Shown here one piece after another: positions 9,463-64,000 of a stretch of DNA of 64,000 nucleotides. Positions within the stretch are counted from its first letter, which is position 1. Each line of letters begins with the position of its first letter. The DNA comes from Bacilli bacterium (GTDB taxonomy: Bacteria > Bacillota_I > Bacilli_A > RF39 > UBA660), in assembly GCA_017511805.1 (NCBI GenBank), contig JAFWJA010000015.1, forward strand, positions 323,098-387,097, written 5' to 3'. The translations under genes were made by a program, and so were the position numbers. The notes below the pieces were generated by a model that worked only from the letters and a program-made list of their open reading frames with translations, ran no database searches and was not told the DNA's origin.

Positions 9463-9481
9463 GTGTTTTATCACTCTTTTT
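9456..9481 (-). terminator. Rho-independent terminator after the KilA-N gene.
   Basis: AAAAAGAGTG-ttttat-CACTCTTTTT hairpin. It overlaps the TGA stop. Confidence 0.4.
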
Positions 9482-10370: not shown

Positions 10371-10400
10371 AAAAAAAGAAGAATTTGTTATTATTCTTCT
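10371..10400 (-). terminator. Rho-independent terminator directly after (and overlapping the last codons of) the giant surface-protein gene.
   Basis: AGAAGAAT-loop-ATTCTTCT hairpin followed by T8 on the minus strand. Confidence 0.55.
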
Positions 10401-25369: not shown

Positions 25370-25466
25370 AACAAACACTTCCTATTTTCTATTATTTATT
25401 CTTATAATAATTATAACATTTTAGTAATAAAAATAAAAGAAAAAAAGTACATTTTTTTGTACTTTT

Positions 25467-43661: not shown

Positions 43662-43664
43662 TTT

Positions 43665-44204: not shown

Positions 44205-44240
44205 ATAAGCACCTCTTTCATATAGAAAAAAGCTAATTAA

Positions 44241-44807: not shown

Positions 44808-44844
44808 ATATTACTCCTACAATAATATAATTATATCAAATAAT

Positions 44845-45174
44845 CTAATTTTTTTTAAGTATAAAAGTATAAATTTCATCATTATTTTTTACATAAAATT
44901 CACACTCTTTACTATTCATTATATAAAATATTGGTTTTTTTTCTCCAAACTTAACATTTACTAAATCATCAAAGTATTTAGCTTTAACTATTTTTTTATT
45001 TTTAGTATCTATTTTTTTAGCTAATTCTACTAAACAATAATCATATAATTTAAATATTTTAGTAATACTATTTAAATATGGATCTTTACTAGAACTAGTT
45101 ATTAATAGTAATAAAGATATTATTAATAAAACTATTATTACAAACGAAAAAGATATTTGCTTCATAAAAAGCAA
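44845..45174 (-). CDS. Small single-TM protein, paralog of 47825-48151 (both have an (E/H)EC(E/I)F motif).
   Basis: N-terminal TM ISFSFVIIVLLIISLLLLI. ...SKECEFYVKNNDEIYTFILK compares with ...EHECIFVIEDKYNNLICIVK. Confidence 0.4.
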   Translation of the reverse strand: MLFMKQISFSFVIIVLLIISLLLLITSSSKDPYLNSITKIFKLYDYCLVELAKKIDTKNKKIVKAKYFDDLVNVKFGEKKPIFYIMNSKECEFYVKNNDEIYTFILKKN

Positions 45175-45226
45175 TATTATTAATGATATTGTTAATATAA
45201 TTGATGTAATTAAATAATACTTAGTC

Positions 45227-46372
45227 TTATTCGTTTAAATCTCCTCCTACTAAATTCTTAAACCATATAGTTGGATATGCAATTTTACCTATTCTAAAAT
45301 CTACATATTTACCTAATACACTTTCTTTAGATATTTCTTTATATGTTTCTTTTTTATCTTGATCTATTTCTTTAGTAACATAGATCTTACCATTTTCTAC
45401 TTTAGTTATTTTTTCAATAACTATTTTATTATTTTCTTTGTACGCTACTATATCATCTATATGATAATCTTCATATGATACCTTTTGATTTATCATAATA
45501 GCGTCACCCTTATTAATACCACTTATTGTACTCTTTTCTACTCCAATTAAGTAATATTTAAAGAATCCTGATATTAATCCTATTACTATAGTAAAGAATA
45601 TAATTAGTACTATATCTATTACTAATCTAACTATACTTATATTCTTTTTATCTTTATCAAAATTATTAATATATCTATAAGAATATATAAATATTAATGA
45701 AGGTAAAACTATATTACAAATAGATGTTAAATAGTTACCTAACATAGGTTTATAAGTACAAATATAAGTATATAAACATAATGGTATTACATATACAATA
45801 CATGGATAATAGCCTACTTTCTTAGTTAAATAAGTAAGCATTATATTTTTAATAACAATTGGAAGCATTGTAACTGTAATATAAATAAATATATTTTTAG
45901 CAGTTATATCAAATCTATATATATTTAGTATTAAATCAAATATAATTATTAAGAATGTCATAAAGTAGATAGTACTCTTATTATCTTTATTATTACTTAC
46001 ATAATTATATCTAAAGAATTCTAAACATAGTACTGATATAAAAGGCATAATACTATTTTTTAATATAGAGAAAAAATCGCTAGAAAAAACATCTCTACCA
46101 TAACCAGTAAATATACCAAGTAAATATATTACTGAAAAATATATTAATAAACCTACTGCAACCAGTTTAATTATCTTTTTATTTAAAGTACTAAATTCAA
46201 ATATTTTAAAATCATATATAATATAACTAATAAGAGCTATAGTTAGTATAAATATTGCACTTATAATTGATGAATAACCTTGAAAAAATGTAAATACAAC
46301 TGAAAAATATAAAATTATAAAACTAATAAAAGATATAATAAACAACCTATTTTTATTCTCTATTGAATTCAT
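45227..46372 (-). CDS. Paralog of 42540-43661: polytopic membrane domain plus a SipW-like domain in which all three catalytic positions are substituted (predicted pseudo-peptidase).
   Basis: Aligned segments: EKSTISGINKGDAIMIN (catalytic Ser becomes Thr, Pro becomes Gly). KIVIEKITKV (His becomes Glu). VTKEIDQD (GD(N/M)N becomes EIDQ). The TM domain conserves KNSI..CxE(L/F)FRY, NKDNK, IIIFD, LPxVxxNIxL(S/T)YLT. Confidence 0.55.
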   Translation of the reverse strand: MNSIENKNRLFIISFISFIILYFSVVFTFFQGYSSIISAIFILTIALISYIIYDFKIFEFSTLNKKIIKLVAVGLLIYFSVIYLLGIFTGYGRDVFSSDFFSILKNSIMPFISVLCLEFFRYNYVSNNKDNKSTIYFMTFLIIIFDLILNIYRFDITAKNIFIYITVTMLPIVIKNIMLTYLTKKVGYYPCIVYVIPLCLYTYICTYKPMLGNYLTSICNIVLPSLIFIYSYRYINNFDKDKKNISIVRLVIDIVLIIFFTIVIGLISGFFKYYLIGVEKSTISGINKGDAIMINQKVSYEDYHIDDIVAYKENNKIVIEKITKVENGKIYVTKEIDQDKKETYKEISKESVLGKYVDFRIGKIAYPTIWFKNLVGGDLNE

Positions 46373-46380
46373 TTTTTCAC

Positions 46381-47061
46381 CTACTTCTCTATATATGTTA
46401 CTTTATATGTTAGATTTAATTCCTGATCTGTATCAGGTAAATCTTCTACTTCTATATCTTCTAAATACTCTATTTCTAGATGTATTTTTTTCTTTTCACC
46501 TACTAATAAAGTATCTCCTTCTTTAATAGTAGTTCCATCTTTATAAGTTACTTTATATTTAATATATTTCATTTGAGTAGAATTAAGACCAGTTAAAACA
46601 GTATCATATATTTTTGCATCTATATTACCATTATTAACAACATCTACATCAAATGAATATTTTTCACCAGGTACTCTTAAATATATAGTATAGTTTACTT
46701 CAGTTTTATTACTTAAAATATGAGCATCAGTTATTGCTTCAATAGAATCAGCATCTACTTCAAGATTTTCAAATTCTATTTGCCAATTTATATTAGAAGG
46801 TTCTATTACTGGTACACTATCTTTTCTTGTTGGAGTACTAGAACTAGATCCTCTATTATTACTTGTATCAGATTTATCATCTTTTTTATCATCAGTCTTC
46901 TTATCATCTGTAGTAGGATTATCTGTTGGTTCTAAATATTTATTGTTATTCATTTTAACGCCAAAATTACTTGCTAAAGATGCATACATAAACGTAATTA
47001 CTATTAACAATAATATAAAGAATATTGGATAAAAACGACCTTTTTTATTATCATTATTCAT
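46381..47061 (-). CDS. TasA/camelysin-like secreted protein (paralog 3 of 3) with an extra low-complexity D/K/S-rich linker after the signal peptide.
   Basis: RFYPIFFILLLIVITFMYASLASNF signal. LRVPGEKYSFDVDVVNNGNIDAKIYDTVLTGL core. Confidence 0.5.
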   Translation of the reverse strand: MNNDNKKGRFYPIFFILLLIVITFMYASLASNFGVKMNNNKYLEPTDNPTTDDKKTDDKKDDKSDTSNNRGSSSSTPTRKDSVPVIEPSNINWQIEFENLEVDADSIEAITDAHILSNKTEVNYTIYLRVPGEKYSFDVDVVNNGNIDAKIYDTVLTGLNSTQMKYIKYKVTYKDGTTIKEGDTLLVGEKKKIHLEIEYLEDIEVEDLPDTDQELNLTYKVTYIEK

Positions 47062-49005: not shown

Positions 49006-52000
49006 CTACTTCATGAATTCTAGGATACAGTAATTATATCCTGTCAATTCATCTATCTTAGTAACAACTTGATAGTTCTTATCTGTTGCTGTTGTTATAT
49101 CTCCGTTTACTCTTGGTGATGTAGAACCAATTATATAACCATCATAGAATTTAAATGTTCCATTTCCTTGGCTGATACCTATACCAGTAGTAGTTCCAAT
49201 AGCTTCTATATATGGATTAGTAATTGATACATCAGCATTTTCTGTACCTCTACCATCTTCTATACCAAGTACTACTGATCCTCTTGTAATATAGATACCA
49301 TATGCTATATTACCTGAAGCATGTATTGATCCAGTTTCTATAGTTATTTCTCCGCCTTCTGCATATAATCCATAAGATGCACTTTCTGTATCATGAACTG
49401 AAATATTAACATTATTTAATACTGGAGAACCATCTACAGAATATACACCACCAGCATATTTAGAATTATATGTTTCTATAGTTCCACCAGTCATTCTAAT
49501 TGAACCAGATGTACTATATAAACCATATGCATTATTAGAATTATATGCCTTAATAGTAGCATTAGTAACATTAGATGTATTTTCACTATTACTATCTATT
49601 GCTGAGGCAATTTCCGCTCCTGAAACAGTAAACTTATCGCGAGTAGAATTTAAAATACTTGTATTATGAATAACATTAAGTTTTTTATTTCTTTCATTAT
49701 TAAGATTATGAGTTAATATATATTCATTATCAGTTGATATTAATGTACCACTGTTATCAATAGTTGATATTGTAATATCAGTTTCATAGTAATTATTAGC
49801 ATTAGTGTGACTAATAGTAGAATTACTAATTGATAATATTCCAGTATTAGTAATAGTAACTTCATTGCCTTCAGAAGTTGTTTGATATGTAATAGTAGTT
49901 CCATCAATAGTAGTATTACCAGCATTATCTATAAACTTAGTAATAGTACCACCATTAATTATTAGTTCTGCATTTGTCTTAGCATTACTAATTTGACCAT
50001 TAATATTAGTATTAGTAATTGTTGTTCTTTCAGTTGAGTACTTATAATAAGCAATTTGTCTTGATGTTAATGTACAATTTGAAATATTTTCTAGATCTGA
50101 TGAATTACTATAGATAGCATATAGATCACCTTTAATAGTAGAATTTGTTAATGTCATTTTACCATTGTTAATTATACCTATATTATCTACATCTAAATCA
50201 ATATTATCTATAGTCATAATACCATTAGTATCATTCTTAATCGCAGTATCTCCTATTATTTCAATATTACTTATATTTAATGTTCCATTATTTATAATAG
50301 ATGATTCTGATGATCTAGAATTTATAATAGAATTTGTTAATTCACTAGTAATTGTTAAATCACCGCTATTATTAATTGGTTTAAATGTTCTTAAAGTATG
50401 ACCATTTAGATCTAGTGTTAATCTTACTCCATCATATATATAAGATTCATGAGATAAAATTGTATCATCTAACAATTCAATAACATCATCATCATTTACT
50501 TCATTAAATGCTTGTTGAATATTATTATATGTCTTATCTTGTGTCTTATTATGGATAGTATAAGAAGATTCTACTAAGTACGCTATATTCGAATAATCTT
50601 GAGTATAGTTATCTTCAGATTCATATGCATACATAGTTTTATTAATTAGTCTTGGATTTCCAATAAATCCAGTACCACCACCTGCTGGTCCATAATATCC
50701 TGCTGCTCCTCCATAGAAACCACTTCCACCACCAGACATATAATTGTTTGAATTATTAGTTTTATTAGAACCAAATCCAAATGATGGATATATTTGACCT
50801 GTGTTAGCATTTGTCATAGTAGCATATCTACACTTAGTATATGTTCCTGGTCTATTTGTTGTAGCACCATTACCATAGTTTTCACATACACCATTCATTG
50901 ATTTTGCATTACCTGCAGTAAGTCCTCCAGCATGTCCTCCGTCACCAGAGTAATCTGGATATAGTTCGTGAGTAGAAGAACCTCCTCCACCACCTGCAAC
51001 TATTAAGATTGCATTTTCGGCACCTGTTAAATATCTTAATGTGTTAGGATTTGTAGCTATTGATGTTGCTCCTCCACCACCAGCATAAACTCCGTTATAC
51101 TTCATAGTTGAAGAGTTATATTGCCCTGCTGCATATCCACCACCATTATATCCATATGTTGTACTATAAGTCATTTTTCTACATGATTGTGTAGTACATC
51201 CATCTGGTGCTTCAACATCAACACTTTGTCCTTGACCACCTACTGCTATATATAATGTCTCATTCTTATCAAGATATACTTCACCTACTGAATAGCCTCC
51301 ATAACCTCCAGTATTTGAATTACCTAAATATGAAGTATTTCCTCCTTGAGCTCCCCATACCTCAAGTTTATATTTACCTGGGCAATAGATATCAAGAGTT
51401 TGCATTCCATTAGTATGATCATATAAATAAACATTATTTACTAAACTTTCACAATATGCATCTGAATAAGCATATTTTGCATATAATATCATTGAATTTT
51501 GTACTAATGTTTCTGGTGTAACTTTAGTAGAGAAATCTGAATCTATATACCAACCTTTAAATATTAGGTTACTATCTGTATTAATAGGTTCAGGAATGTT
51601 TCCAAGTGCATCACCACGATTATAAATTAATGTATTATCCTCAATTGTTCCAACACTTGATATTAGATTTACTTCAATTTGTTTAGCATTAGCTTTTCTC
51701 TTAATATAAGTAATCTTAGCATATCCATCACCAGTGTTACCAGTCATTGTATATGTACCATCATATGAAGGTACTTTTGAACCACCACCTAATAGTGTAG
51801 TATCGTACATATAATATTTGGATCCTACTAGATATCCAGATGGTTTATATGATGTTGCTGTTAATACGTAGCCAGATCCTCCACCGCCACCTTGTTGGGC
51901 CATTGAAGAACCGCCTCCGCCGTACCAGCCACCGCCTCCGGCTCCACCGACATATGATCCACCTTGTCCAAATGAACCATTTCTACCAGCACCAGTTTGA

Positions 52001-55000
52001 GTACCTCCGTCACCAGCGTCGGACCAATAACCATTCCAGCCACCACCTTTAGAACCAGATTCGCCACCACCGGCACCTCCACCAGATGCTGTTCCAGGGC
52101 CTCCGCCTCCACCAGCGACAATAATTCTAGAATATAAACTACTTGTAAGTCTAATATCAGTAGCTCCTCCACCCATTATTGTACCAGGGCCAGAGCCTCC
52201 TCCATTATAACCTCCATTAGTACCAGAAGTTCCTACATATACGAATAATTCTTGACCTAAAGATAAATCTATATAACCAGCAGAATATCCACCATTTGCT
52301 CCACCTTGAGCTCCCCATACTTCTAATTTATATGTACCTGTACACATAGAAGTAAATTTTTGAGAAGATTTAGTAGGTAAATATGTATATTCTCTTCCTA
52401 TATAGTCTTCACAGTTAATATTTTCATATATTTGATCATCTGGATCAATACTAACTGAATTATCTTCATATGTTATTCTTGCATAACCATTACCTTCTTT
52501 AGCAGTATTAGCAATTGGTTCTGCACTAACATCTTCTGTATTTCTATTTTTATACTTTTGTAAGTACATTTGCATTTCATCAGTTGTTTCATATACTTCA
52601 TATCCTTCTCTAATAATATCTATACTATCAGGAGTTCCTTTTATATATCCTTTTAATATACCAGAATAGAAATATACTTCTCCATCTAATCTATATACAC
52701 TATATAGACCACCTTCAATAGAAGGATTTTCAATAGAAACAGAATCATTTTCATTTCCTATTACTACAAGTGAATCTTCATTATTTTGATATATACCATA
52801 TAATTCACCTATTATAGAACCAGTATTAAATTGTAATGATTTTCTACTAGTTTGTGTATTACCTATATATACACCAATGTTTTTAGAACTAATATTTGTA
52901 TTATTAAGTACCATATTTGATTCATAAGTTGCTGCATATATACCATAACCAGTATTATTACCAGTAGTAGTAATATCAACATTAGTTAAATTTAGGTCAC
53001 CACTATATACATTTATACCTGTATCTTTAGCAGTAATACTTGCATCTGTAATAGTTAAACCAACCATTGTATAGATACCTGTACCTACTTCATTAGTTAT
53101 TTCTATATCATTTATATCACATGTTGCATTTGTACCACAATAGATGCCATATTCAGAACCAGATCCTCTAGATATAATAGATACATGATCTATATCTATA
53201 TCACTATAAGCAAAATAGATTCCTGATTGACCAGATTTAATTGATGTATTATATATTTTTACATCATTACGTCTTTCAGCAGTATTCTTACTAGTTGAAT
53301 CATAATATCCTCTTCCAGTTCTTGCAATAAGATCACTTTCATTTATAGTAACTATATTATTACCGTTACCATTATTCATGTATACTGAAGTATAATCGGC
53401 ATTTATTTTTGTATTATAAACGCTAATTGTCGAGTTATATGAATTTGAATAAATACCATATGATCCTTCTAAAGTAGAATCTGTTACATTTAAAGTAATA
53501 TTTTGTCCATTATCAATATAGATAGGATTTGAACTACTTTTAATAGTAGCATTATTTCTTACATCTATAACTGCTCCATTAACATGATTTGATATAGCAC
53601 CATTATAACTTGAGGTAGATAATGTAGAAACAGTTACATATTCTACTGTTAAATTCTTATAATTAGCTACACCACTAGTTTTTATGTTTTGTAAAATACC
53701 ATTTTTAGCTTCACTACTATCTGTAATTATTAAGTTTGAATTGTTTGTAAATGTTTCACTCATAACTAATTTTTTGTTATTTAAATCTAATGTAATATTT
53801 TTACCAGCAGGTATTGTTACTGCATCCGGAACTGAAGCACTTGCTACTACTTTAATAGTACCATTAGCATCTATTGCATCTATAGCATCATCAAAATTAT
53901 CATATCTTTCTCCATCTACTTCTAAGAATCCATCTCTTGATGATAGATAATTTAATACCCAAATATTACTAGCAACATTATATCCAGTCATATGTGCATT
54001 TGATAATCTTGGATTTCCAATATAACCAGATCCTCCACCTCCACCACTATAATCGTTGATTACTGATGTTGATGATTGATCATTTGTTCCACCGGAACCT
54101 CCGCCGTACCAACCTCCGCCTCCGGCTCCACCATAAACTCTATTTTCTACATTTATGGTAGTATCTGCACCTTTACCAAATGTTCCTATTCCTTTTTCAG
54201 GATGTAAGTTATTATGTCCACCTTCAGTTTGTGTACCACCGGTACCATAGTTAGCAAATGTACCTGTATTAACAGAACCATCATTAGCTATATAGCCTCC
54301 TCCTGCTCCTCCAGTACCTCTGTTATAACTTGTAGAGTAATATGAGCCTCCTCCTGCTCCTCCAGCAACTATTAATATTGAATCTTTATTATTTTCTAAT
54401 TCATATAGTTGTCCTGAAGCTGTGGCAATATGTGTAGCTCCTCCACCTGAAACTGATGTAATTTGGTATGAAGACCAATTATTAGTAACTGAACCTCCAC
54501 CATTATATCCACCATCAGCGGTACCAGTTCTACTATTTAAGATTTGTCCTTGTCCTCCAACATTTATATAAAGTGTTTCTCCTTGAGTAAGTTCTATTTC
54601 TCCTTGTGAGTAACCACCTTGTGCTGCAGGGAAATTACTTGTATTTGATGTAGATGTTCCTGCACCCCATACTTCAAGTAAGTATTTACCTGTACATGGA
54701 ACATTAAATGTTTCTTCACCATTAATATATTCATAATCATATACATCGTTTGTATAACATAATCCTATATCTTCACCTAAATATGTAATTCTAGCATAAC
54801 CATTACCAGTTTTAGCAACATCACTAGTTGCTGCACTAGATACTTTAGTTGTACTATAAGTTCTTGTTTTTAAATCTTCTTCAGATGATGAACTTTCTTC
54901 AACAATATCATGATTTTGTCTTAAGTTAACAATAGTACCAGAATATCCATATTTACGTCCTTTTAGAACACCATTATAGAAACTAGTAACAGCACCAGTA

Positions 55001-58000
55001 TATTGAACTCTAACACCATATTCTTGTCCAATAAATACAGGATCCACTTTATTTAATTCTGCATCTTTATCACCTATAGTCACTTTAGCATTAGTTCTAA
55101 TATCTAATCCTGAAACTGTACCTTCATAAGTACCACTATTAAATGTGTAATTACCTCCCGCATATACATCAACGGCAGTTCCTACACCTTTATAAGTACC
55201 ACCATTAAATACTACAGTACCAGAACTATATAAATATAAACCAGTAGATTTTTCTGATTCTACATTACAATTATTAAATGTACCATTATTCGTTCCACTA
55301 GATAGATATATAGCATTATAAGTATTAGCAACAAAACTAGAATTTTCAAATAAGAAGTTAGTAGTTGATCCTGAAGAATAGTTATAATAAGCATAGTTTT
55401 TACCAGTTAAAGTAGAATCTTTAATATTTAAAGTAGATGAACTTCCACTAGTAAAGTTAAAATAAATACCATATGAATTATTAGAAGTTAAAGTACTATT
55501 ATCTATAGTTAAATTAATTCCTTTTCCATAATTATATACTACTTCGTTATTTGATGTTAATTCTGAATTATCAATAACAACTACTTGATTATAATTAGTA
55601 TTTATAAGATTAGCAGTAGTAGTTATTTTTGAATTTAGAATATTAACTTTACCACCAGTTGTAGTAGAAGTTATTACATTTTTACTAGAATTAACAACAA
55701 TTCCATCCATAGTGAATGTACCTTTGTTTTCAATAACTCTAGTTAAACTATTTGTTATTTTTCCAGTTTTATCATCACTATTATCTACAATAGTAAATGT
55801 TCCTTTATTAACAAACTCACTTCTCATAGATAATGTATTACCATCAAGATCTAATGTAATATTTTTACCTAATGGTATTACTGATTGCTCTGATAATTCT
55901 ACATCTTTAATAACATAAATAGTTCCTTCTTCATCAATAGCATCTACAGCATCTGCAAATGAATTAAAGTATTCATCTCCAACTCTTAAGAACACTTCTC
56001 TATCTTCTAGATAGTTTCTTACATAAGTTCTTATTAATGCTTTTACATTATATCCATACATTATTCCATTTTCAATTCTTGAATTAGCTATGTATCCAGA
56101 ACCACCACCAGAAGTTACAGTTACAGATTTAGTACTACCACCACCGTAGTAGCCTCCTCCACCTGCATTACCCATAGTTCCATAACTATCAGCACCTCTA
56201 CCAAATGATCCTTTACCTTCTTCAGTAGAACTACTTTGATCAAATCCTGGACCTACTTGTGTACCTCCAGTACCATAGTATATAGATGGTGTACCACCCA
56301 TATATCCACCACCGGAACCACCATAATGTTCATTATATGAACCATTACCATATATAGTTCCACTAGCTCCACCACCACCAACTATAAGAATTGAATCTTT
56401 GTTATCTTCAAGTTCACTTAATAATCCTGGTGCTGTTGCAATATGAGTTGCTCCACCTGATCCATATATTGTTAATCTAGTGCTACTAGAACCAGTGTAT
56501 GTATAATCATTAATGTAAATATCTCCGCCACCATTATATCCACCTTTAACAACATATGTACCTGATACACTATTTTTATATTGACCTTGTCCACCTACTG
56601 TTATATATAAAACTTCATTTTCAGTAAGTTCTATTTCACCATATGAATATCCTCCATATGATCTATTACTATATGAAGCTGAACCCCATACTTCTAATTT
56701 ATATCTTCCAGTACATGGTACTGTAAATTCTGCTGTATTACCTGTATAACCATAAGTATATTCTTGATTATTTGTACAAGTTTCATTAGTTTCACCAATA
56801 TAAGTTATCTTAGCATAACCTGGACCTGATTTAGCATAATTTGATGTAGCTGTTTGACTATAATTAGTAGTAGAATTAGTATTCCAAATATCTGCTTCTG
56901 GAATAGTTTCTATTTCTTCAGCAACTACCTTACCTCTTCTTAATTCTCCAAGAGACATATTAAAACCATAAGTAGAACCTCTTAATAAACCATTATAGAA
57001 ATTAATTATTGTTCCACTAATAGCATATACGCCATATATTCCTCCAGAAATATAAGGATCTTCTTTAGAGTATTCTTTACTCTTATCTCCTATATTTACT
57101 ACTGTTACATTTGAAGAAGTACGAATACCATAGGATTTACCTACTATAGAACCACTCATAATGTATGCTGTATAACCACCAACATTAATACCTGTTCCTT
57201 CAACATCAATATCACAATCATAAACATAAACGTTATTAGAACCAATATTAATACCTGTACTTGATGATCCTCCTCCAGAAACATTAACATTTGTTAAAAT
57301 GTATTTATAATTAGTATTTGAACTTAGTGTGATTCCTGTATAACTAGTATTTTTTGCAAGATTTATAGTTACATTATTTATTATTGCGTCTTTTTCAACG
57401 TTACATGAACTTAATATAACACCATCTGTATTATTAGTATTAATAGTTACATTTTCTAATACTAATTCATATGCAGTACCAATTTCTATTGGATGTTCAC
57501 TAACACTAGTTGAAGTATGTTCAAAAGTACCTCCATGAATATATATATAATTACCATTAGAAGCAACAAGGCCAAATGTTTTTCCTTTAAATTCTCCAGC
57601 ATTAATTGTTAGAGTATTTGGACAATCTTGATACTGATTAGTGCTTTTTGTAGTATATGCTCTAACATTTATTGCACTTTCATTAGTAGAAGTAACTTTA
57701 CCATCATTTATTGTAATTGTATTACCTTTTAGATTTTGAGCATCCAAATATGAATAAATACCAGTTTTATATGATTTAATTTCACCATCATTCATTGTGA
57801 AATTAACTTTACTATAATGTAGATTAATACCATATATATCTTGATTATTTGATGTATCAATAACAACTGTACCACCAATAGTTAAATTTTTTGGTGAATC
57901 AATACCAGAAATAGTACCTGATTCTAATGTAAGTGTCTCAGTTTGATTATTATATATTGCATAGTTATTATCTGATTTAATTAATGTATCTCCTGATGTA

Positions 58001-61000
58001 GTAACAGTACCATTTGTATAAATAGTATAGTTATCTATAGTTGTTAATTCTGCATCATTAAGTATTAAATCTCCATTATTTAAAACTGCATAATTATCAG
58101 AGTTCTTTTCATGGAACTTAATATTTTCTAATGTTAATGTACCATTATTATTAATAGTAGAAGCACTATTAATAATAGTATTAGTTTCTTCAGAATTATA
58201 TATTTTAAGAGTACCATTATTTGTAAATGTATCTCCTATTGAGAAACTATGACCATTTGTATTAATAAGAATATTAGCATTTTCACTTACATTAAGTGGA
58301 TATGTTGCTTCAAAGTTATCTCTTCTTATAAATATTTCATATCCAGTCTTAGTAGCAGTATCAATAGCATCTTGTAATCTAAAGAAATATTGTGTTCCTC
58401 CTACTCTAGTTTCTGCAACTGCATTGTCAGGATTACCAATTAGGTAAACTCTTTGGCAATCCTTATCAATGTTATAGTAGTTATATATAAAGTATCCTTG
58501 TGGTACTTTATCAACTTTACCATTAAGTGCTACATCACCTTCAATGTATCCATCATAGAAGTTAAACCTACCACTTTGTTCTAGACCAATATCAGTACCT
58601 ATGATTTTGACATTATCTTCAATCATATCTCCATCATTATCACCTATTGTAAGATTTCTTCTATTATCAAGAGCAGTTCCATTAGGATTTTCAATAGTAC
58701 CATTTATAAGAGTTAAATCACCATTATTGATTACTTTACCTGTAATAGTATAGTCATTTAAATCTAATGTAACTGTTTTTGTATTAGTTGATTCTGCTTC
58801 TGTTACATTCTTAATTAATTCAATAGTATCTCCATCTTTTGCTTCATCAAATGCTTCTTGAACTGATAAGAAGTAATCCGTATCTATTCTAGCAACTGCA
58901 TTCTCATCAATTTCCCATATAGCAGTAACTGTTATATCTTTTAATCCTACTGTTATTACATATGGATCTTGCTCTGTACCAGTTCCAGATAGAACACTTG
59001 GATCATTTACTTCCCATCCTAAGAAGTTGCATCCACGCTTTGTTGGAGTTAATAATGTATATGTTTCTTCATATTTCTTATAGATTTCTCTTATATCTTT
59101 ACTTCCATCATATACACCATAATTAGGATTTATTGTAATAATTAAATCTGTTTCTTTATTTCTAATTGCTTCTTCAGATAAACTTTGTAGATATTTCTTT
59201 TCACTTTGAATATCTTGTTCTGTTCTTATTCTTGAGTAATCCGCAATTTGATTTATTTCTCCTTCAACCGCTTTAGTACCTTCTATGTAACCATCGTACA
59301 TAATTAAATTACCTTCATTAACTATAGTAGTAGTTTCACTAATTATTCTTATATTAGAACTTGATACATTACCATCATTTTCTCCTAGAATAACAGTACC
59401 ATAATTAATTATTGTATTCTTATCAAAGTTTTGAAGAGAGCCATTATATACATTAAATGTACCACTATTAATTAATTTAGTTGTAATACTATGTTTATTT
59501 AAATCTAGTGTTACATAACCACCAGTAGGTATTACTAAATCTTCAGATACAGATTTTAATAATTTAATTGTATCTCCTTCTTCACACTTATCTATTGCAT
59601 CTTGTACAGTTGAATAATAAACTCCATTTAATAATGCAACTGTATCTCCTTGATAGTCATGACCCATGTACTCAAGTAATGCATATTCAAATCCAGTATT
59701 TTCATCAACATATGTAGTAACTTCGTATTGATATTCAACATTAGTAGTTGTTTCTGGTTTAGCAAATTTACTTGCTTCAATAATACCATCATAGAAGTTA
59801 AATGCACCATTTATCTTTTTAACACCAATACCTCTATCACCTTGTACATAGATTAATGGATCAGTTGTAGATACATCTGCAGTTTCTCCTCCAGTACCTT
59901 CATAATGTCCCATTTCAAATGTACCAGTATTAGCATATACACCATAAGCATTAACTGCTCTTTCTACATCTATCTTACCAGATAATATAGTTGCTTTAGC
60001 ATTAGCGCTATTTGAATATATACCATATGCCACACTACCACCAGTAACATTTATTTCAGAATCTGAAATAGTTATATCGCCAGTACCTTGGTTAGTAATA
60101 CCCCTATATTCATAAGTATTATTTAATGAACCAATATTAATTTTAGAATTATTTTGAATAGTTAAATTCTTAGTATTTAATATAGCTTGCGAATGTTTAC
60201 CAACATCTGATTTATTAACTAAGATATTAGTATTATCTATAGTCATTGTACTAGAGTTACTAATTGCAGTATCTAAACTACTTTGTGATGTAGAACCAAT
60301 TGTATTTGTATAAGTTGATCCTATTAATGACATAGTACCAGTATTAGTAATCTTAGAATTATTAATATTTGAATTCGATACTGTTAATGTACTAGTAGAA
60401 TTTTGAATATTACTATTTATAGTACATGTATCACATGTAGTTTCATTAGTACCAGAATTATAGAATACTCCAGTTAAAGTAGTTCCTGTTATATTAACTT
60501 CTTTATTAGAATTATTATAAATACTATAATTAGTTCCTGTATATGTGCCATTATTAATGGTAAGTGTACTTGTGTTATTTACTGCAATCTTATTAGCTTT
60601 AACTATAGAATTATTTATAGTAGCATTACCAGAATTTGTAATACCAGATACACTATCTACATTAATATTATTTGCATTTAAAGTACCTTCATTATTAATT
60701 ACATAATTAGAAGTACTTGTGTTCTTAAGACTAACATTACTAATATTTAAAGTATTCTTGTTATTAATAATACTAATAGAACCAGATGTCTTAATTGATG
60801 CTTCAGTTTGTGCATCATTTGTAATAGTCATATTACCATTATTAGTGATAGTCTTATTAGCAGATATAGTATATCCTTTAAGATTTAAAGTAAATGTTTT
60901 ATTATTAGGAATAGTTAAATCGTAATATAATGGAACATTTGTTAATAATTCAATTGTTTCATTAGTTCCTACTTCACTAATAGCACTTTGTAGATTACCA

Positions 61001-64000
61001 TAACTAACTCCTGTATTAATATTAATAGCTACATCAGATTCAGCGATTAAATATGCTGTTAAGAAATTCTTCTTATCTAATACTTCAGTATCTTCAAATA
61101 CTTGAGCATGATCTGCAAGTGCATTTAAATTACCATGATATCTATCAGTTATACCTTTTAAGATACCATCATAGAAATTAACATTTCCTGCAGTAATATA
61201 TAGACCATATGTATCACCTTTTAATACAGGTGAATCTATGTTAATAGTGCCATCATTCTTACCAAGTGTTAATGTATTAGTACTTCCTTTAGATACACCA
61301 AATGTTGCTCCTTCAATAACACCACCATTTATTTCTGTTTCTTTATAAGTAAATAAACCTACATCAGATAAACTTACTATATGACCACCATTAATAATTA
61401 ACTTACCTGAATTACTATTACTACTTGTTGTAGTCATACCTGTTGTATATCCAGTTATTTCTCCACCATTAATAGTAACGTTTGAAGTATTAATAACATA
61501 TATACCATTTGAAGTATCTGATGTTATTGTTCCACCATTAACAGTTAAACTACTGTCATTAATATAAATTGCATTTTTATTTATTGTATGAATAGTACTA
61601 TCATTAATAGCAACTGAACTAGTACTATAAATAGCTTCTTTATCAGTTGTACTAATAGAACCAGAATCTACTGTTAAAGTACCACTATTATTAATACCAT
61701 AACCTGTATCACTAGTAATAGTACATCCATCTATTGTAAGAGTACCAGTATTCTTAATACCATCTTTAGTTTCAGAATTAAATGTTCCACCTTTTATAGT
61801 AGTAGTACCAGAGTTTTCAATAACATTAGCACTTAAGTTATTTATACCACCAGATTCACTACCATTAAGTATAGTTACATTTCCTTGTATCTTTAATGGT
61901 TGTGTCATTATTAAACTATGACCATTTAAATCAAATGTAACTGTTTTACCTGAAGGTATACTTTGTGCATAATCAATATATGCATCTCTAATAACTGTAA
62001 TAGTTCCTTCAGTACCAGTTATTGCATTATATGCTTTATTTATAGAATTGAATTCTTCATTACCTACTCTTAAGAAGTTTCCTTTTTCAATTAAGTAATT
62101 AGTTTGATATTCTATTTTATTTATATAATCATAATCATTTTCAATTAAACTAGCTTCTGGAATTATATTAATAAGTCCACTATAACCAGAAGTAACACCT
62201 TTTAATACTCCATCATAGAAAGATGTATATGCTGTTGTAGTTAAACCATAATCAGTATGACCTATTATTTCAGGTTTATCTATATATATATTTCCATCAT
62301 CTTTACCTATTTGAATTTCTGCTGATGTATTAATACCATCTGTTGAACCTTCTATAGTACCTCCATAGATATTTAATTTACCTGTAGTATCACCAGTCAT
62401 ATTAATACCATTACCGTTAGTACCTACTATATGACCATCATTAACTGTTACTGTTTTATATGAACAATTATAATTTACATTTTTATTAGGACAATATAAT
62501 TCATTCTTAATACCTACTGTACCAGTTATTTCTCCACCACTTACTGTAATATCATTATGTGAATTAATAGCTATGTTATTAGTAGATGTAATTGTACCAC
62601 CTTGAATATCTATTTCTCCAAAGTAACTAGATATAGCATTATTTTCAGTTGAACTAATTGTTCCACCTGTTATAGTTATATCACCATAATCTCCATAGAT
62701 ACCATAATTAGTACTTGTTATAGTACCATCTGATATAGTAACTGATTCAGCACTATTTAAATTATTTATACCTATGTTACTAGTAGTAATAGTACCACCA
62801 GTTATTTCTAAAGTTTTACCATTATTAATACCAATCTTTGTATCAGTAATAGTAACATCATTAATAGTTAAACTATCATTATTAACAATTGCTACTTCTA
62901 CTGCTTTAACATTAGCGTTATTAATAATCATATCTTTGTTATTAACTATTGATATATCACCAGTACTATTATAATTACCACCATTAATAGTTAAACTATT
63001 ATTATTAGTTATACCTTCTACTCTTGTTGGATTAATGGAACCAGTTTGTTCAGTAGAACTATCTACTATTGTTAATATACTTTCATTTATTATTGTTTGA
63101 GTACTTGTAATAGTTTTACCATTTAGATCTAATGTAATATTCTTATCTTCTCCAAGAACAGTTTGAACAAATGTAATATCAACATCTCTTGTTACTATAA
63201 TTGTTCCACCATCAGATACTGCATCAGATGCTTCATCTAAACTATTATAGTAATTAGATCCAACTTGTAACCATGGTTCAAAATTATCAACATATTCTTT
63301 TTGATATGTAGTACCATCTATTTCTACTTCTGTTTTAAATACTGAACCTCCTGTTGGAGTACCAGTTATTGTTCCATAATGTGAATCTATTTCTCCAATT
63401 AATTCTCCATCATAGAAATTAACTTCTGTACCTTCACTATATAATCCATAAGATTCACCTTTTATACTAGGATTATTTGATACTATAGTTCCTTCATTAT
63501 CACCTAATGTAATTATTCCTTTATTATGAACACCATATGTTTCACCTTCAATAGTTCCTCCAGTAATAGTACCTTCTTTATTTACGGTAACACCAGCGCC
63601 TTCACTAGAAGAAACAGATCCATTACTCATAGTAAAGTTATCAGATATAATTCCATTTCCAGTTCCTGTTACTGTACCTCCAGTAATATTTGTTTTACCA
63701 TTTATTACTTTGTTCGGATTATTTGTATTAACATAAGTATAATCTTTAATTGCTGTACCATCTGATGTAACTGTTCCTCCTGTTACAGTTATATCATTTG
63801 AATCAATACCATATGTCTTGCCGTTAACAGTACCACCATTAATAGTAACTTTACCACCATTATTGTTATTAGTAGCTTCACTATATATTGCTGTACCTTC
63901 AGTAGATGTTACTAAACCACTATTAACAGTAACATTTAAACTATTAATAGTTGGTCCATTTGTTGAAGTAACTGTTCCACCATCAACTACTATTGTTCCA
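49006..64000 (-). CDS. Second giant surface protein. More than 4990 codons lie inside the window and the 5' end is beyond the 3' edge. It is built from right-handed beta-helix units with FYDG caps, single Listeria-Bacteroides repeats, and four tandem ~280-aa glycine-rich modules resembling the ALK/LTK glycine-rich domain. There is no C-terminal TM anchor.
   Basis: The open frame continues from the track start (ATG 63630) to 64000 with no in-frame stop (I checked every codon 63631-64000). The upstream translation ...GNGIISDNFT- is the same beta-helix repeat type. Confidence 0.85.
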   Translation of the reverse strand, partial: GTIVVDGGTVTSTNGPTINSLNVTVNSGLVTSTEGTAIYSEATNNNNGGKVTINGGTVNGKTYGIDSNDITVTGGTVTSDGTAIKDYTYVNTNNPNKVINGKTNITGGTVTGTGNGIISDNFTMSNGSVSSSEGAGVTVNKEGTITGGTIEGETYGVHNKGIITLGDNEGTIVSNNPSIKGESYGLYSEGTEVNFYDGELIGEIDSHYGTITGTPTGGSVFKTEVEIDGTTYQKEYVDNFEPWLQVGSNYYNSLDEASDAVSDGGTIIVTRDVDITFVQTVLGEDKNITLDLNGKTITSTQTIINESILTIVDSSTEQTGSINPTRVEGITNNNSLTINGGNYNSTGDISIVNNKDMIINNANVKAVEVAIVNNDSLTINDVTITDTKIGINNGKTLEITGGTITTSNIGINNLNSAESVTISDGTITSTNYGIYGDYGDITITGGTISSTENNAISSYFGEIDIQGGTITSTNNIAINSHNDITVSGGEITGTVGIKNELYCPNKNVNYNCSYKTVTVNDGHIVGTNGNGINMTGDTTGKLNIYGGTIEGSTDGINTSAEIQIGKDDGNIYIDKPEIIGHTDYGLTTTAYTSFYDGVLKGVTSGYSGLINIIPEASLIENDYDYINKIEYQTNYLIEKGNFLRVGNEEFNSINKAYNAITGTEGTITVIRDAYIDYAQSIPSGKTVTFDLNGHSLIMTQPLKIQGNVTILNGSESGGINNLSANVIENSGTTTIKGGTFNSETKDGIKNTGTLTIDGCTITSDTGYGINNSGTLTVDSGSISTTDKEAIYSTSSVAINDSTIHTINKNAIYINDSSLTVNGGTITSDTSNGIYVINTSNVTINGGEITGYTTGMTTTSSNSNSGKLIINGGHIVSLSDVGLFTYKETEINGGVIEGATFGVSKGSTNTLTLGKNDGTINIDSPVLKGDTYGLYITAGNVNFYDGILKGITDRYHGNLNALADHAQVFEDTEVLDKKNFLTAYLIAESDVAININTGVSYGNLQSAISEVGTNETIELLTNVPLYYDLTIPNNKTFTLNLKGYTISANKTITNNGNMTITNDAQTEASIKTSGSISIINNKNTLNISNVSLKNTSTSNYVINNEGTLNANNINVDSVSGITNSGNATINNSIVKANKIAVNNTSTLTINNGTYTGTNYSIYNNSNKEVNITGTTLTGVFYNSGTNETTCDTCTINSNIQNSTSTLTVSNSNINNSKITNTGTMSLIGSTYTNTIGSTSQSSLDTAISNSSTMTIDNTNILVNKSDVGKHSQAILNTKNLTIQNNSKINIGSLNNTYEYRGITNQGTGDITISDSEINVTGGSVAYGIYSNSANAKATILSGKIDVERAVNAYGVYANTGTFEMGHYEGTGGETADVSTTDPLIYVQGDRGIGVKKINGAFNFYDGIIEASKFAKPETTTNVEYQYEVTTYVDENTGFEYALLEYMGHDYQGDTVALLNGVYYSTVQDAIDKCEEGDTIKLLKSVSEDLVIPTGGYVTLDLNKHSITTKLINSGTFNVYNGSLQNFDKNTIINYGTVILGENDGNVSSSNIRIISETTTIVNEGNLIMYDGYIEGTKAVEGEINQIADYSRIRTEQDIQSEKKYLQSLSEEAIRNKETDLIITINPNYGVYDGSKDIREIYKKYEETYTLLTPTKRGCNFLGWEVNDPSVLSGTGTEQDPYVITVGLKDITVTAIWEIDENAVARIDTDYFLSVQEAFDEAKDGDTIELIKNVTEAESTNTKTVTLDLNDYTITGKVINNGDLTLINGTIENPNGTALDNRRNLTIGDNDGDMIEDNVKIIGTDIGLEQSGRFNFYDGYIEGDVALNGKVDKVPQGYFIYNYYNIDKDCQRVYLIGNPDNAVAETRVGGTQYFFRLQDAIDTATKTGYEIFIRRDNFEATYPLNVSENANILINTNGHSFSIGDTFTNNGTLKIYNSEETNTIINSASTINNNGTLTLENIKFHEKNSDNYAVLNNGDLILNDAELTTIDNYTIYTNGTVTTSGDTLIKSDNNYAIYNNQTETLTLESGTISGIDSPKNLTIGGTVVIDTSNNQDIYGINLHYSKVNFTMNDGEIKSYKTGIYSYLDAQNLKGNTITINDGKVTSTNESAINVRAYTTKSTNQYQDCPNTLTINAGEFKGKTFGLVASNGNYIYIHGGTFEHTSTSVSEHPIEIGTAYELVLENVTINTNNTDGVILSSCNVEKDAIINNVTINLAKNTSYTGITLSSNTNYKYILTNVNVSGGGSSSTGINIGSNNVYVYDCDIDVEGTGINVGGYTAYIMSGSIVGKSYGIRTSSNVTVVNIGDKSKEYSKEDPYISGGIYGVYAISGTIINFYNGLLRGSTYGFNMSLGELRRGKVVAEEIETIPEADIWNTNSTTNYSQTATSNYAKSGPGYAKITYIGETNETCTNNQEYTYGYTGNTAEFTVPCTGRYKLEVWGSASYSNRSYGGYSYGEIELTENEVLYITVGGQGQYKNSVSGTYVVKGGYNGGGDIYINDYTYTGSSSTRLTIYGSGGATHIATAPGLLSELEDNKDSILIVGGGGASGTIYGNGSYNEHYGGSGGGYMGGTPSIYYGTGGTQVGPGFDQSSSTEEGKGSFGRGADSYGTMGNAGGGGYYGGGSTKSVTVTSGGGSGYIANSRIENGIMYGYNVKALIRTYVRNYLEDREVFLRVGDEYFNSFADAVDAIDEEGTIYVIKDVELSEQSVIPLGKNITLDLDGNTLSMRSEFVNKGTFTIVDNSDDKTGKITNSLTRVIENKGTFTMDGIVVNSSKNVITSTTTGGKVNILNSKITTTANLINTNYNQVVVIDNSELTSNNEVVYNYGKGINLTIDNSTLTSNNSYGIYFNFTSGSSSTLNIKDSTLTGKNYAYYNYSSGSTTNFLFENSSFVANTYNAIYLSSGTNNGTFNNCNVESEKSTGLYLYSSGTVVFNGGTYKGVGTAVDVYAGGNYTFNSGTYEGTVSGLDIRTNAKVTIGDKDAELNKVDPVFIGQEYGVRVQYTGAVTSFYNGVLKGRKYGYSGTIVNLRQNHDIVEESSSSEEDLKTRTYSTTKVSSAATSDVAKTGNGYARITYLGEDIGLCYTNDVYDYEYINGEETFNVPCTGKYLLEVWGAGTSTSNTSNFPAAQGGYSQGEIELTQGETLYINVGGQGQILNSRTGTADGGYNGGGSVTNNWSSYQITSVSGGGATHIATASGQLYELENNKDSILIVAGGAGGGSYYSTSYNRGTGGAGGGYIANDGSVNTGTFANYGTGGTQTEGGHNNLHPEKGIGTFGKGADTTINVENRVYGGAGGGGWYGGGSGGTNDQSSTSVINDYSGGGGGSGYIGNPRLSNAHMTGYNVASNIWVLNYLSSRDGFLEVDGERYDNFDDAIDAIDANGTIKVVASASVPDAVTIPAGKNITLDLNNKKLVMSETFTNNSNLIITDSSEAKNGILQNIKTSGVANYKNLTVEYVTVSTLSTSSYNGAISNHVNGAVIDVRNNATIKSSSNPIYIDNGQNITLNVTDSTLEGSYGIYSNSYNSTISVYNTKINADYTSVYMNNGNGNNIVTINESDLIARTGRGYYDSTSKNTAERRNDVKIYNTSIKSGQSGIYFAYSDIDIDHVSIISRGSGSEYGIYCGTNATCDINDIEITNEVGTGIYTMVGLTITDASITAKDTGINVYSGDLNLTNVDITTTGNNTGYGIYAATYESNMVLNNTNISSKNIGVYIGNTQTSRKSLQFNTGSIIGELYGIYQNNEDSLVVIGNENDSVSIENPSIEGGLYSVYRLDGEVYFYSGILKGYIKGTPDSIDIIREGYEVYETTDEMQMYLQKYKNRNTEDVSAEPIANTAKEGNGYARITYEDNSVSIDPDDQIYENINCEDYIGREYTYLPTKSSQKFTSMCTGTYKLEVWGAQGGANGGYSAGYIDLSLGQELFVYVGTSGTNGGYNGGGSGPGTIMGGGATDIRLTSSLYSRIIVAGGGGGPGTASGGGAGGGESGSKGGGWNGYWSDAGDGGTQTGAGRNGSFGQGGSYVGGAGGGGWYGGGGSSMAQQGGGGGSGYVLTATSYKPSGYLVGSKYYMYDTTLLGGGSKVPSYDGTYTMTGNTGDGYAKITYIKRKANAKQIEVNLISSVGTIEDNTLIYNRGDALGNIPEPINTDSNLIFKGWYIDSDFSTKVTPETLVQNSMILYAKYAYSDAYCESLVNNVYLYDHTNGMQTLDIYCPGKYKLEVWGAQGGNTSYLGNSNTGGYGGYSVGEVYLDKNETLYIAVGGQGQSVDVEAPDGCTTQSCRKMTYSTTYGYNGGGYAAGQYNSSTMKYNGVYAGGGGATSIATNPNTLRYLTGAENAILIVAGGGGGSSTHELYPDYSGDGGHAGGLTAGNAKSMNGVCENYGNGATTNRPGTYTKCRYATMTNANTGQIYPSFGFGSNKTNNSNNYMSGGGSGFYGGAAGYYGPAGGGTGFIGNPRLINKTMYAYESEDNYTQDYSNIAYLVESSYTIHNKTQDKTYNNIQQAFNEVNDDDVIELLDDTILSHESYIYDGVRLTLDLNGHTLRTFKPINNSGDLTITSELTNSIINSRSSESSIINNGTLNISNIEIIGDTAIKNDTNGIMTIDNIDLDVDNIGIINNGKMTLTNSTIKGDLYAIYSNSSDLENISNCTLTSRQIAYYKYSTERTTITNTNINGQISNAKTNAELIINGGTITKFIDNAGNTTIDGTTITYQTTSEGNEVTITNTGILSISNSTISHTNANNYYETDITISTIDNSGTLISTDNEYILTHNLNNERNKKLNVIHNTSILNSTRDKFTVSGAEIASAIDSNSENTSNVTNATIKAYNSNNAYGLYSTSGSIRMTGGTIETYNSKYAGGVYSVDGSPVLNNVNISVHDTESASYGLYAEGGEITIETGSIHASGNIAYGIYITRGSVVLGIEDGRGTENADVSITNPYIEAIGTTTGIGISQGNGTFKFYDGYIIGSTSPRVNGDITTATDKNYQVVTKIDELTGYNYCILEFMK
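50600..51420 (-). repeat. Glycine-rich module D (CPGKYKLEVWGAQGG ... LYIAVGGQGQ ... GGGGATSIAT ... ILIVAGGGGGS ... GGGSGFYGGAAGYYGPAGGGTGFIGNPRL).
   Basis: Read directly. Confidence 0.6.
51690..52500 (-). repeat. Glycine-rich module C (GNGYARITY ... CTGTYKLEVWGAQGG ... GGGATDIRLT ... IIVAGGGGGPG ... GGAGGGGWYGGGGS ... GGGGGSGYVL ... GDGYAKITY).
   Basis: Read directly. Confidence 0.6.
53950..54820 (-). repeat. Glycine-rich module B (GNGYARITY ... CTGKYLLEVWGAG ... LYINVGGQGQ ... GGGATHIATA ... ILIVAGGAGGG ... GGAGGGGWYGGGSGG ... GGGGGSGYIGNPRL).
   Basis: Read directly. Confidence 0.6.
55960..56830 (-). repeat. Glycine-rich module A: ...GPGYAKITY ... EFTVPCTGRYKLEVWGSAS..GGYSYGEIEL..LYITVGGQGQ ... 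GGATHIATA ... ILIVGGGGASG ... GGGGYYGGGS ... GGGSGYIANSRI.
   Basis: Read directly. Local GC spike from GGN codons. Confidence 0.6.

Follow-up and report, generated by a model that had tools for sequence, protein, structure and literature searches.

Layout of the giant gene and its neighbours

The window, by which we mean the whole 64,000-nucleotide stretch of DNA analysed, comes from a low-GC 'Bacilli bacterium' that is uncultured and was recovered from ruminant gut metagenomes. On the minus strand, a single frame stays open between 49006 and the window edge; no stop precedes the ATG at 63630, from which module residues are numbered (Table 1). The in-window part of the giant protein comprises 4997 codons and the public full-length product has 5695 aa, so that approximately 698 N-terminal residues lie outside the window. 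Based on Pfam searches, the protein matches PF12810, Beta_helix (PF13229) and, weakly, an Ig-like family, and nothing else; no NCBIfam model matches the protein or a single module.

Four glycine-rich modules, M1–M4, lie at 50581–56847 on the minus strand, where the first-pass annotation had seen them (50600–56830). Four copies are indeed present, but the tandem arrangement that it described is not, as the layout is interspersed: the last beta-helix units are each followed by a PF12810 domain. Most of the upstream units start with ...GTI.V..D....ITLDLNG.T and end with ...NFYDG.L.G. No hydrophobic or transmembrane segment occurs across the 4997 in-window residues, and the C-terminus, ...ELTGYNYCILEFMK, has no LPXTG motif, hydrophobic segment or membrane anchor.

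In the neighbouring locus, one of the membrane proteins carries a SipW-like signal peptidase domain and the other is a divergent look-alike; ORF 42540–43661 matches the signal peptidase I model TIGR02228 with 77 bits. The small secreted paralogues (ORFs 43665–44204, 44241–44807 and 46381–47061), encoded just downstream of the giant gene, have no significant Pfam or NCBIfam family match. Additionally, these three ORFs are 29–39% identical to a domain at the N-terminus of the giant's full-length homologues, and the N-termini of six co-linear homologues show a hydrophobic signal-like segment followed by a domain of ~150 aa. From these homologues, we infer that the giant protein probably carries a signal peptide and is exported.

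Table 1. Positions of the features in the window
Feature	Position	Strand	Residues and evidence
Giant ORF	49006–64000	-	open at window edge
Seven or more upstream units that lack glycine-rich domains	56848–63999	-	head/cap motifs and PF13229
M1, ALK/LTK-type glycine-rich domain	55996–56847	-	aa 2262–2545; PF12810 84.9 bits (isolated module) and motifs
Right-handed beta-helix unit separating M1 from M2, 389 aa	54829–55995	-	PF13229 32.8 bits, above cut-off; unit head/cap motifs
M2, glycine-rich domain, copy used for modelling	53926–54828	-	aa 2935–3235; PF12810 107 bits (isolated module)
Beta-helix unit between M2 and M3, 470 aa	52516–53925	-	PF13229 16.8 bits, below the cut-off of 25.9 (E 0.0056); same head/cap motifs
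M3, glycine-rich domain	51706–52515	-	aa 3706–3975; PF12810 104.9 bits (isolated module)
M3/M4 linker, ~64 aa, Listeria-Bacteroides-repeat-like (Flg_new) domain	51514–51705	-	PF09479 26.6 bits, just below the cut-off of 27
M4, glycine-rich domain, longest variable inserts	50581–51513	-	aa 4040–4350; PF12810 113.4 bits (isolated module) and alignment
Last beta-helix unit, C-terminus ...GYNYCILEFMK	49009–50580	-	same C-terminus in homologues
G.GYA.ITY strand, four copies	56800–56826, 54781–54807 (GNGYARITY, M2 N-side), 52468–52494, 51706–51732	-	starts at aa 2269, 2942, 3713, 3967
Neighbouring locus	42540–47061	-	two multi-pass membrane proteins and three small secreted paralogues
Second giant protein	10391–25378		three repeats of 145–165 aa each, aa 1760–2215, window 18734–20101

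Glycine-rich modules and their predicted fold

PF12810 (ALK_LTK_GRD) matches the whole protein in four stretches with E=6.8e-104 (347.6 bits), and the single modules reach 85–113 bits, compared with a curated gathering threshold of 24.5 bits. Because of these scores, the landmark pattern is far beyond chance. All eight landmarks listed in the first-pass annotation recur in identical order in M1, M2, M3 and M4, as seen by motif search and alignment, the strings that it quoted being M2 or consensus forms. Variants are LFVYVGTSG and GGGATDIRLT in M3, SGGATHIATA and GNAGGGGYYGGG in M1, and MSGGGSGFYGGA and AGGGTGFIGNPRL in M4. Collectively, the profile matches show the four modules to be true members of the PF12810 ALK/LTK glycine-rich domain family, as had been proposed.

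The glycine content of the modules is 18–27%, the highest being that of M3 (27%), which covers positions 5–242 of the 243 in the Pfam profile, the C-terminal GDGYAKITY strand included. Variable, indel-rich loops alternate with the conserved glycine blocks, and the conserved non-glycine residues include a cysteine pair, 21–23 residues apart, in all four modules. The GxGYA(K/R)ITY strand had been assigned once to each module. Four copies exist, and the first three lie 37–50 aa ahead of the module cysteine of M1–M3; the fourth, however, directly follows M3, 116 aa ahead of the M4 cysteine. M1 and M2 carry the strand on the N-side only, whereas it is C-terminal in 92 of 120 homologues.

For comparison with solved structures, a single-sequence phmmer search with the whole module region found no match among PDB sequences, and a profile of the four modules matched 7LIR, the solved glycine-rich domain of C. 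elegans ALK (SCD-2), at a non-significant E=0.19. A deeper profile of 76 sequences (M2 with the other three modules and 72 homologues from databases) was needed, and it matches 7LIR with E=5.6e-6 over 215 positions. In this alignment, the ALK sequence is paired with TvpvtGtYkLEvWGAqGG, GGAThI and IVaGGGGG. At E<=0.01, the profile did not extend to human ALK.

The AF2 model of M2 (pLDDT 88.4, pTM 0.89) places beta strands in the first half of the module, and GNGYARITY is a predicted strand in a block with a pLDDT of 97. Residues 156–274 contain almost no DSSP helix or strand, a pattern that polyglycine-II (PGII) helices would give, and most of their 10-residue blocks have a mean pLDDT >84. In Foldseek, the top 21 matches of this model are all ALK/LTK, in line with the likeness first suggested, and the predicted fold is superposable on ALK/LTK structures as a beta-sandwich interwoven with a glycine-rich lattice. 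In ALK, this domain holds 14 polyglycine-II (PPII) helices packed in a lattice (PMC11364801). The modelled glycine-rich head is also structurally similar to phage receptor-binding glycine-rich heads. Collectively, the modelling predicts a beta-sandwich that would bear a lattice of glycine-rich extended helices, with the glycine motifs as the scaffold.

The modules were compared at both sequence levels. Pairwise identity is 37–55% in protein and 49–61% in DNA, identical amino acids in module pairs use the same codon in only 51–65%, and there are no long near-identical DNA repeats. These values rule out the recent duplication that had been raised and show the four modules to be old, diverged duplicates. 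The public contigs, five in all, show 100% identity over up to 9992 nt and thus offer no strain variation from which to read loop diversification.

Homologues and the second giant protein

An exhaustive HMMER search for the domain gave 4297 cluster representatives, and the best matches are proteins of 4000–7200 aa with up to 11 matched stretches apiece. Five co-linear homologues (P0173, P0162, P0161, P0156 and P0192) are 35–45% identical to the giant protein over 2200–3700 aa. Co-linear homologues are 5400–6600 aa long, with three to five glycine-rich domains in matching C-proximal positions and a shared ...CILEF C-terminus; window residue 1 of the giant protein pairs with their residues 699–783. 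Other lineages have six to eight domain copies per ORF. The best word-index matches are mostly single-domain proteins of 350–500 aa, some with a prepilin N-methyl signal. Neither GTDB genomes nor JGI metagenomes, when scanned, yielded a relative of the N-terminal 600 aa.

On the viral side, 26 BFVD proteins match the domain at E<=1e-3, as do six PHROG families, and the window modules score 85–118 bits against phrog_1589. C. difficile phage phiMMP02 gp26 matches PF12810 over the full profile with 182.5 bits, and its gene directly follows those for baseplate J, XkdT and the tail fibre. Public data already contain many members of the domain family and many multi-copy giants of this layout, so the architecture is not rare and the array is less striking than it had been called. 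Such proteins already bear labels in Pfam, NCBI and UniProt, and no new kind of system is present here. In the literature searched, no paper on a cellular bacterial member of the family was found.

The second giant protein had been credited with three related modules sharing a 'KYLL...GGYSYGYVTV' core. Its three repeats exist, but only one of them contains this string, and they are not detectably related to the glycine-rich domain at the sequence level. The protein has no PF12810 match, and its repeats do not match a custom glycine-rich domain HMM even at E<=10. BLASTP against the domain gives E>=0.2 and hhalign a probability of 0.2%. Moreover, in P0243, a co-linear homologue of the second giant, this repeat type forms a domain of its own next to true glycine-rich domains. 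Based on these results, we reject kinship of the repeats with the domain. One repeat was modelled with AF2 from only three sequences, and the model is of low confidence (pLDDT 63).

Proposed role and relation to known systems

By analogy, we put at roughly 0.6 the probability that the giant protein is a secreted fibre of serial beta-helix units, of which the C-proximal ones display diverged glycine-rich binding heads. This region codes for the C-proximal half of the 5695-aa protein, which is a chain of at least 11 right-handed beta-helix units, and the four diverged domains would be binding heads of different specificities along this rigid fibre. Such a protein might act as an adhesin or recognition protein that is multivalent and targets the surfaces of the host, food particles or partner cells, and the label 'surface protein/adhesin' is plausible. 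The binding-head role is suggested because the glycine-rich domains of phage tail fibres and ALK are ligand-binding heads. [quoted passage not shown] The giant protein may be exported and mounted by the neighbouring SipW-like peptidase/paralogue system, since the N-terminal domain of its homologues is shared with the paralogues next to the peptidase.

A more elaborate proposal, which we regard as rather unlikely, would make the giant protein the decorated subunit of an undescribed, SipW-processed Firmicute surface fibre with multi-specific ALK-type heads on beta-helix stalks. The SipW-like peptidase would process the N-terminal domain common to the giant and the small paralogues; the latter would build or anchor the fibre, and the giant subunit would display the heads. 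If this were true, the metazoan ALK/LTK ligand-binding domain would descend from bacterial or phage adhesin heads.

It is quite unlikely that the protein is instead a polysaccharide-degrading enzyme, with catalytic beta-helix units of the lyase or hydrolase type and glycine-rich domains as carbohydrate-binding or stabilising appendages. In its favour, there are generic PF13229 matches, many rumen enzymes have beta-helices of this type and the organism itself stems from ruminant gut metagenomes, and in phage tailspikes a beta-helix goes together with receptor-degrading activity. However, no catalytic family (pectate lyase, GH28, GH55 etc.) matches at E<=0.01 in Pfam or NCBIfam, and a series of at least 11 units with conserved head/cap motifs looks structural. 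A purely structural role, in which the glycine-rich domains would be rigid knobs or spacers of a surface fibre or coat without a specific ligand, also seems improbable. It would suit the copy number of three to five across co-linear homologues and the compact, hydrogen-bond-rich nature of polyproline-II/polyglycine-II bundles (PMC11364801). In every characterised relative, however, the domain serves in recognition (ALK with ALKAL, Pam3 gp24, phage brush domains), and the variable loops between conserved glycine blocks fit a diversifying binding surface.

Given the frequency of the domain in phage tail regions and the KilA-N and Bro-N domain genes elsewhere in the window, a prophage or phage-tail-like remnant, that is, a chromosomal gene for a phage receptor-binding protein, was also considered. 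We reject it as highly improbable because of the size of the protein, its co-linear giant homologues and the non-phage flanks: the chromosomal setting comprises the dnaK operon, lepA, mutL, uvrC and uncharacterised membrane proteins, and no capsid, terminase, baseplate or tape-measure gene is among the flanking genes. A compositional artefact, whereby low-complexity glycine-rich sequence draws a biased Pfam model without homology, might be read from the glycine content, the phmmer null and the four-module E value, but is barely credible and effectively refuted, for example, by the 76-sequence profile match to 7LIR.

The ALK/LTK glycine-rich domain is mostly treated as an oddity of a single family of metazoan receptors. 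As this window illustrates, the sequences closest to it occur in large numbers in gut Bacilli and phages, in adhesin-like or tail-fibre contexts, and surface recognition is a plausible ancestral function. The family also offers a diverse sequence set for the study of polyglycine-II lattice folding and binding-loop presentation. With two giant-protein genes of 15–17 kb within 64 kb, the organism seems to invest heavily in surface interaction.

Among known systems, the SipW/TasA-type fibres of Firmicutes resemble this locus in that a SipW-like (archaeal-type) peptidase gene adjoins small secreted paralogues, whose signal and domain recur at the N-termini of the giant's homologues. In contrast, nothing ties these paralogues to TasA, and a multi-pass membrane domain is fused to the peptidase here; the formation of a fibre by this analogy would be entirely hypothetical. 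Unlike sortase-anchored Gram-positive adhesins, the giant protein does not end in LPXTG followed by a hydrophobic segment and a charged tail. The phage receptor-binding domains of Pam3 gp24 (7YPX), Bxb1 gp33 'brush' (9D93) and S16 gp38 (6F45) are among its closest known glycine-rich counterparts. Phage PF12810 proteins (phiMMP02 gp26; PHROGs 1589, 5811 and 7388) are true family members like the giant's modules. However, they have a single N-terminal domain in ~560 aa, are annotated as of unknown function and lie in a tail-fibre gene block, whereas the giant gene lies outside any phage tail gene block. Finally, the ALK/LTK glycine-rich domain (PF12810; 7LS0, 7LRZ, 7NX3, 7LIR) is a family relative, with an identity to ALK of only 22–27%. 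In contrast to the receptors, the giant protein has no kinase, MAM, LDLa or EGF-like module in Pfam and no transmembrane helix in its in-window part. It bears four copies per chain on beta-helix units, and M1 and M2 differ from ALK/LTK in the N-side position of the G.GYA.ITY strand. As the ALKAL ligands are metazoan, the ligand of the bacterial modules must differ.

Identity and fold of the glycine-rich modules

Pfam family PF12810 (ALK_LTK_GRD) matched the giant protein in four stretches (347.6 bits, E=6.8e-104), and the isolated modules M1–M4 each scored 84.9–113.4 bits against a cut-off of 24.5, which confirms the ALK/LTK glycine-rich domain identity proposed in the first-pass annotation. 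Among PDB sequences, a single-sequence query gave no match and a four-module profile nothing significant. A 76-sequence profile, comprising the four modules and 72 homologues, matched the solved structure of SCD-2, the ALK homologue of C. elegans (7LIR), across 215 positions with E=5.6e-6. In this alignment, 'TvpvtGtYkLEvWGAqGG' of the profile is paired with TVPVTGFYRMEICGAGGGS, and the GGAT and VAGGG blocks are also paired.

The AlphaFold2 model of M2, built on the 76-sequence alignment, has a mean pLDDT of 88.4 and a pTM of 0.89. Its first half contains about a dozen strands, and in residues 156–274 DSSP helix and strand are almost absent, with mean pLDDT above 84 in most 10-residue blocks. 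In a predicted model, this near-absence is how polyglycine-II segments would be expected to appear; ALK contains 14 polyglycine-II helices (PMC11364801). In a Foldseek comparison of the model with the PDB, the top 21 matches are all ALK/LTK entries (E 6e-5 to 1e-2, probability 0.99–1.0; TM-scores modest at 0.27–0.40), followed by noise from E=0.27. Collectively, it is nearly certain that M1–M4 belong to the ALK/LTK glycine-rich domain family.

Regular-expression searches located all eight landmarks described for the modules, in one order, in each of M1–M4; the strings originally quoted are essentially those of M2, with recognisable variants in the other three. Additionally, 61 columns are invariant across the modules, including the LEVWG tryptophan, several tyrosines and glycines, and a cysteine pair spaced by 21–23 residues in every copy. 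The modules had been described as tandem; they do not lie head to tail, being separated by spacers of 389, 470 and about 64 residues. The M1/M2 and M2/M3 spacers both match PF13229, the family of right-handed beta-helices, the first above and the second below threshold, and the M3/M4 spacer scores 26.6 bits for a Listeria-Bacteroides repeat (cut-off 27). Pairwise identity is 37–55% in protein and just 49–61% in DNA, and no long near-identical DNA repeats were found among the copies, which speaks against the recent duplication raised as a possibility. Judged by sequence divergence, the four copies are old duplicates.

In 92 of the 120 best homologues, the domain ends in a strand with the motif 'AK.G.GYA.ITY', and the PF12810 profile also ends with this strand, M3 reaching position 242 of 243. 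M1 and M2 carry it on the N-side only, 37 residues ahead of the first conserved cysteine, and M3 has one on either side; in the AlphaFold2 model of M2, the N-side copy is a confident strand. M1 and M2 may be circularly permuted relative to the common form, which on geometric grounds seems more likely than donation of the strand across the beta-helix insertion.

The second giant protein, a separate ORF, contains 14 Listeria-Bacteroides repeats, Laminin_G_3 and CarboxypepD_reg, and has no PF12810 match. Of the three related modules reported in it, the repeats themselves are present, without a Pfam match, but their relation to the glycine-rich domain is not supported: BLASTP gave E>=0.2, hhalign a probability of 0.2%, and a custom glycine-rich domain HMM no match even at E<=10. 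Moreover, P0243, a co-linear homologue of the second giant protein, contains this repeat type (55% identical to repeat 3) as a separate domain beside three true glycine-rich domains that the second giant protein lacks; the repeat is therefore a different module, and a glycine-less version of the glycine-rich domain was rejected. An AlphaFold2 model from the three copies alone is an all-beta sandwich of low confidence (pLDDT 63).

Features of the window (giant-protein residues numbered from the ATG at 63630)
Feature	Residues	Position	Strand	Remarks
Giant ORF		49006-63630	minus	ATG-started ORF call, 4874 aa
M1	2262-2545	55996-56847	minus	
M2	2935-3235	53926-54828	minus	
M3	3706-3975	51706-52515	minus	
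M4	4040-4350	50581-51513	minus	
G.GYA.ITY strand		54781-54807, 56800-56826, 52468-52494, 51706-51732	minus	
Second giant protein		10391-25378	minus	4995 aa; signal-like N-terminus; C-terminal membrane anchor
Three repeats of second giant protein	1760-2215	18734-20101	minus	145-165 aa each; motif AHSY..DLTN....GY.TV.D.P
Small secreted paralogues		43665-44204, 44241-44807, 46381-47061	minus	homologous to N-terminal domain of giant-protein homologues
Multi-pass membrane protein		42540-43661	minus	C-terminal signal peptidase I domain; TIGR02228 77 bits, SipW model 62 bits
Second multi-pass membrane protein		45227-46372	minus	translation resembles 42540-43661 by eye

Cellular and phage relatives

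The multi-copy architecture is not rare: like the domain itself, it proved very common. A word-indexed search returned 2465 proteins at E<=1e-5 among 8000 scored candidates; the matches listed are mostly single-domain proteins of 350–500 aa, all with a precomputed PF12810 match; several carry a prepilin N-methyl signal, and some bear the name 'glycine-rich (domain-containing) protein [Bacilli bacterium]'. When 1.84 billion cluster representatives were searched exhaustively with HMMER, 4297 matched at E<=1e-3, of which 1884 reached E<=1e-10; the best were proteins of 4000–7200 aa, each matched in as many as 11 stretches. Furthermore, a one-genome-per-species scan found at least 116 loci, mostly in uncultured gut Bacilli or 'Tenericutes', with the others in Saccharibacteria, Bacteroidales (among them the cultured Segatella paludivivens), Clostridia, Myxococcota and Flavobacteriales; single ORFs among these loci hold 6–8 domain copies.

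Five homologues (P0173, P0162, P0161, P0156 and P0192) are co-linear with the giant protein at 35–45% identity over 2200–3700 residues, and a sixth, P0157, aligns in shorter stretches. All six carry 3–5 glycine-rich domains in matching C-proximal positions, and most share a ...CILEF tail. The giant protein is a new member of a known, populous family and has a widely recurring architecture. No paper on cellular bacterial members was found in the literature searched. The best word-index match to the in-window N-terminal 600 aa (62200–63999, minus strand) is P0139 (39% identity), a partial protein encoded in a MAG of Candidatus Saccharibacteria; the Saccharibacteria matches may point to surface-protein modules being exchanged among gut lineages with reduced genomes.

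Among phages, gp26 of C. difficile phage phiMMP02 matches PF12810 along the whole profile with 182.5 bits, and its gene directly follows those for baseplate J, XkdT and a tail fibre. M1–M4 match six PHROG families and, at E<=1e-3, 26 BFVD viral models. In UniProt, many BFVD phage proteins with the domain bear the automatic name 'receptor protein-tyrosine kinase', evidently transferred from the ALK domain, and this is likely a misannotation.

Genomic setting and probable export

The frame upstream of the ATG at 63630 is free of stops to the window edge, giving 4997 codons in the window, so the start of the gene lies outside it. On public metagenome contigs with an identical downstream gene, one labelled ruminant gut metagenome, the product has 5695 aa and a precomputed PF12810 match, so that about 698 N-terminal residues fall outside the window, in agreement with the pairing of window residue 1 with residues 699–783 of the co-linear homologues. 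Compared with window 49006–58997, the public contigs L001–L005, which derive from five different samples or assemblies, are 100% identical over as much as 9992 nt of the giant gene and show no strain-level variation in it.

The region has a G+C content of 22–32%, and the remaining window is ordinary chromosome (hrcA-grpE-dnaK-dnaJ, lepA, spoIIP, miaA, mutL, uvrC). The SpoIIP homologue (29494–30564, minus strand, 165.7 bits) hints at a walled, possibly sporulating organism. KilA-N (9471–10325), Bro-N (34897–35754) and Cro/C1-type HTH (8706–9356) proteins, which are phage-derived regulator types, lie among the housekeeping genes, with no adjoining phage structural genes in the window. A triosephosphate isomerase ORF (36569–37120, minus strand, 183 aa) spans Pfam profile positions 77–242 of 245 and may be truncated or have a miscalled start.

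No hydrophobic segment was found in the 4997 in-window residues of the giant protein, and no LPXTG motif at its C-terminus. In all six homologues, a signal-like hydrophobic segment at the N-terminus precedes a domain of about 150 aa (motif PGDFYEFTV..VNDG), and three small downstream ORFs share 29–39% identity with this domain (E 1e-13 to 1e-30). These ORFs are interleaved with two multi-pass membrane protein ORFs at 42540–47061; 'SMSP' in the first corresponds to 'STISG' in the second, which has no family match. The giant protein is probably exported, and the homologies suggest that it would be fed into a SipW-type system for export and assembly; the locus may encode such a system or a fibre system resembling SipW/TasA.

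Beta-helix units and putative binding heads

The in-window giant protein contains ten cap motifs ('...P.I.G..YG......NFYDG.L.G') and, by pattern search, seven conserved unit heads ('L.VG...Y.S...A......GTI.V..D......IP..K.ITLDLNG.T'). Several units match PF13229, and with a partial unit at the window edge there are therefore at least 11. Glycine-rich domains follow just three of the caps, those at residues 2211, 2884 and 3654, where a linker of 50–60 residues leads to M1, M2 and M3, respectively; M4 comes after M3, and one final beta-helix unit closes the protein.

In the 76-sequence alignment, conserved blocks (GGYS, VGG.G, GGYNGGG, GGGATHIA, ILIVAGGGGG, GTGGTQ, GGGGYYGGG and GGGSGYIGN) are interleaved with poorly conserved, indel-rich segments. 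The beta-helix units would form a rigid fibre, which might display M1–M4 as four diverged binding heads. A multi-headed adhesin is the best-supported functional reading, with a probability of roughly 55–60%. [quoted passage not shown] Phage receptor-binding heads combine glycine-rich motifs with variable tips (PMC9608196), and the module alignment follows the same logic.
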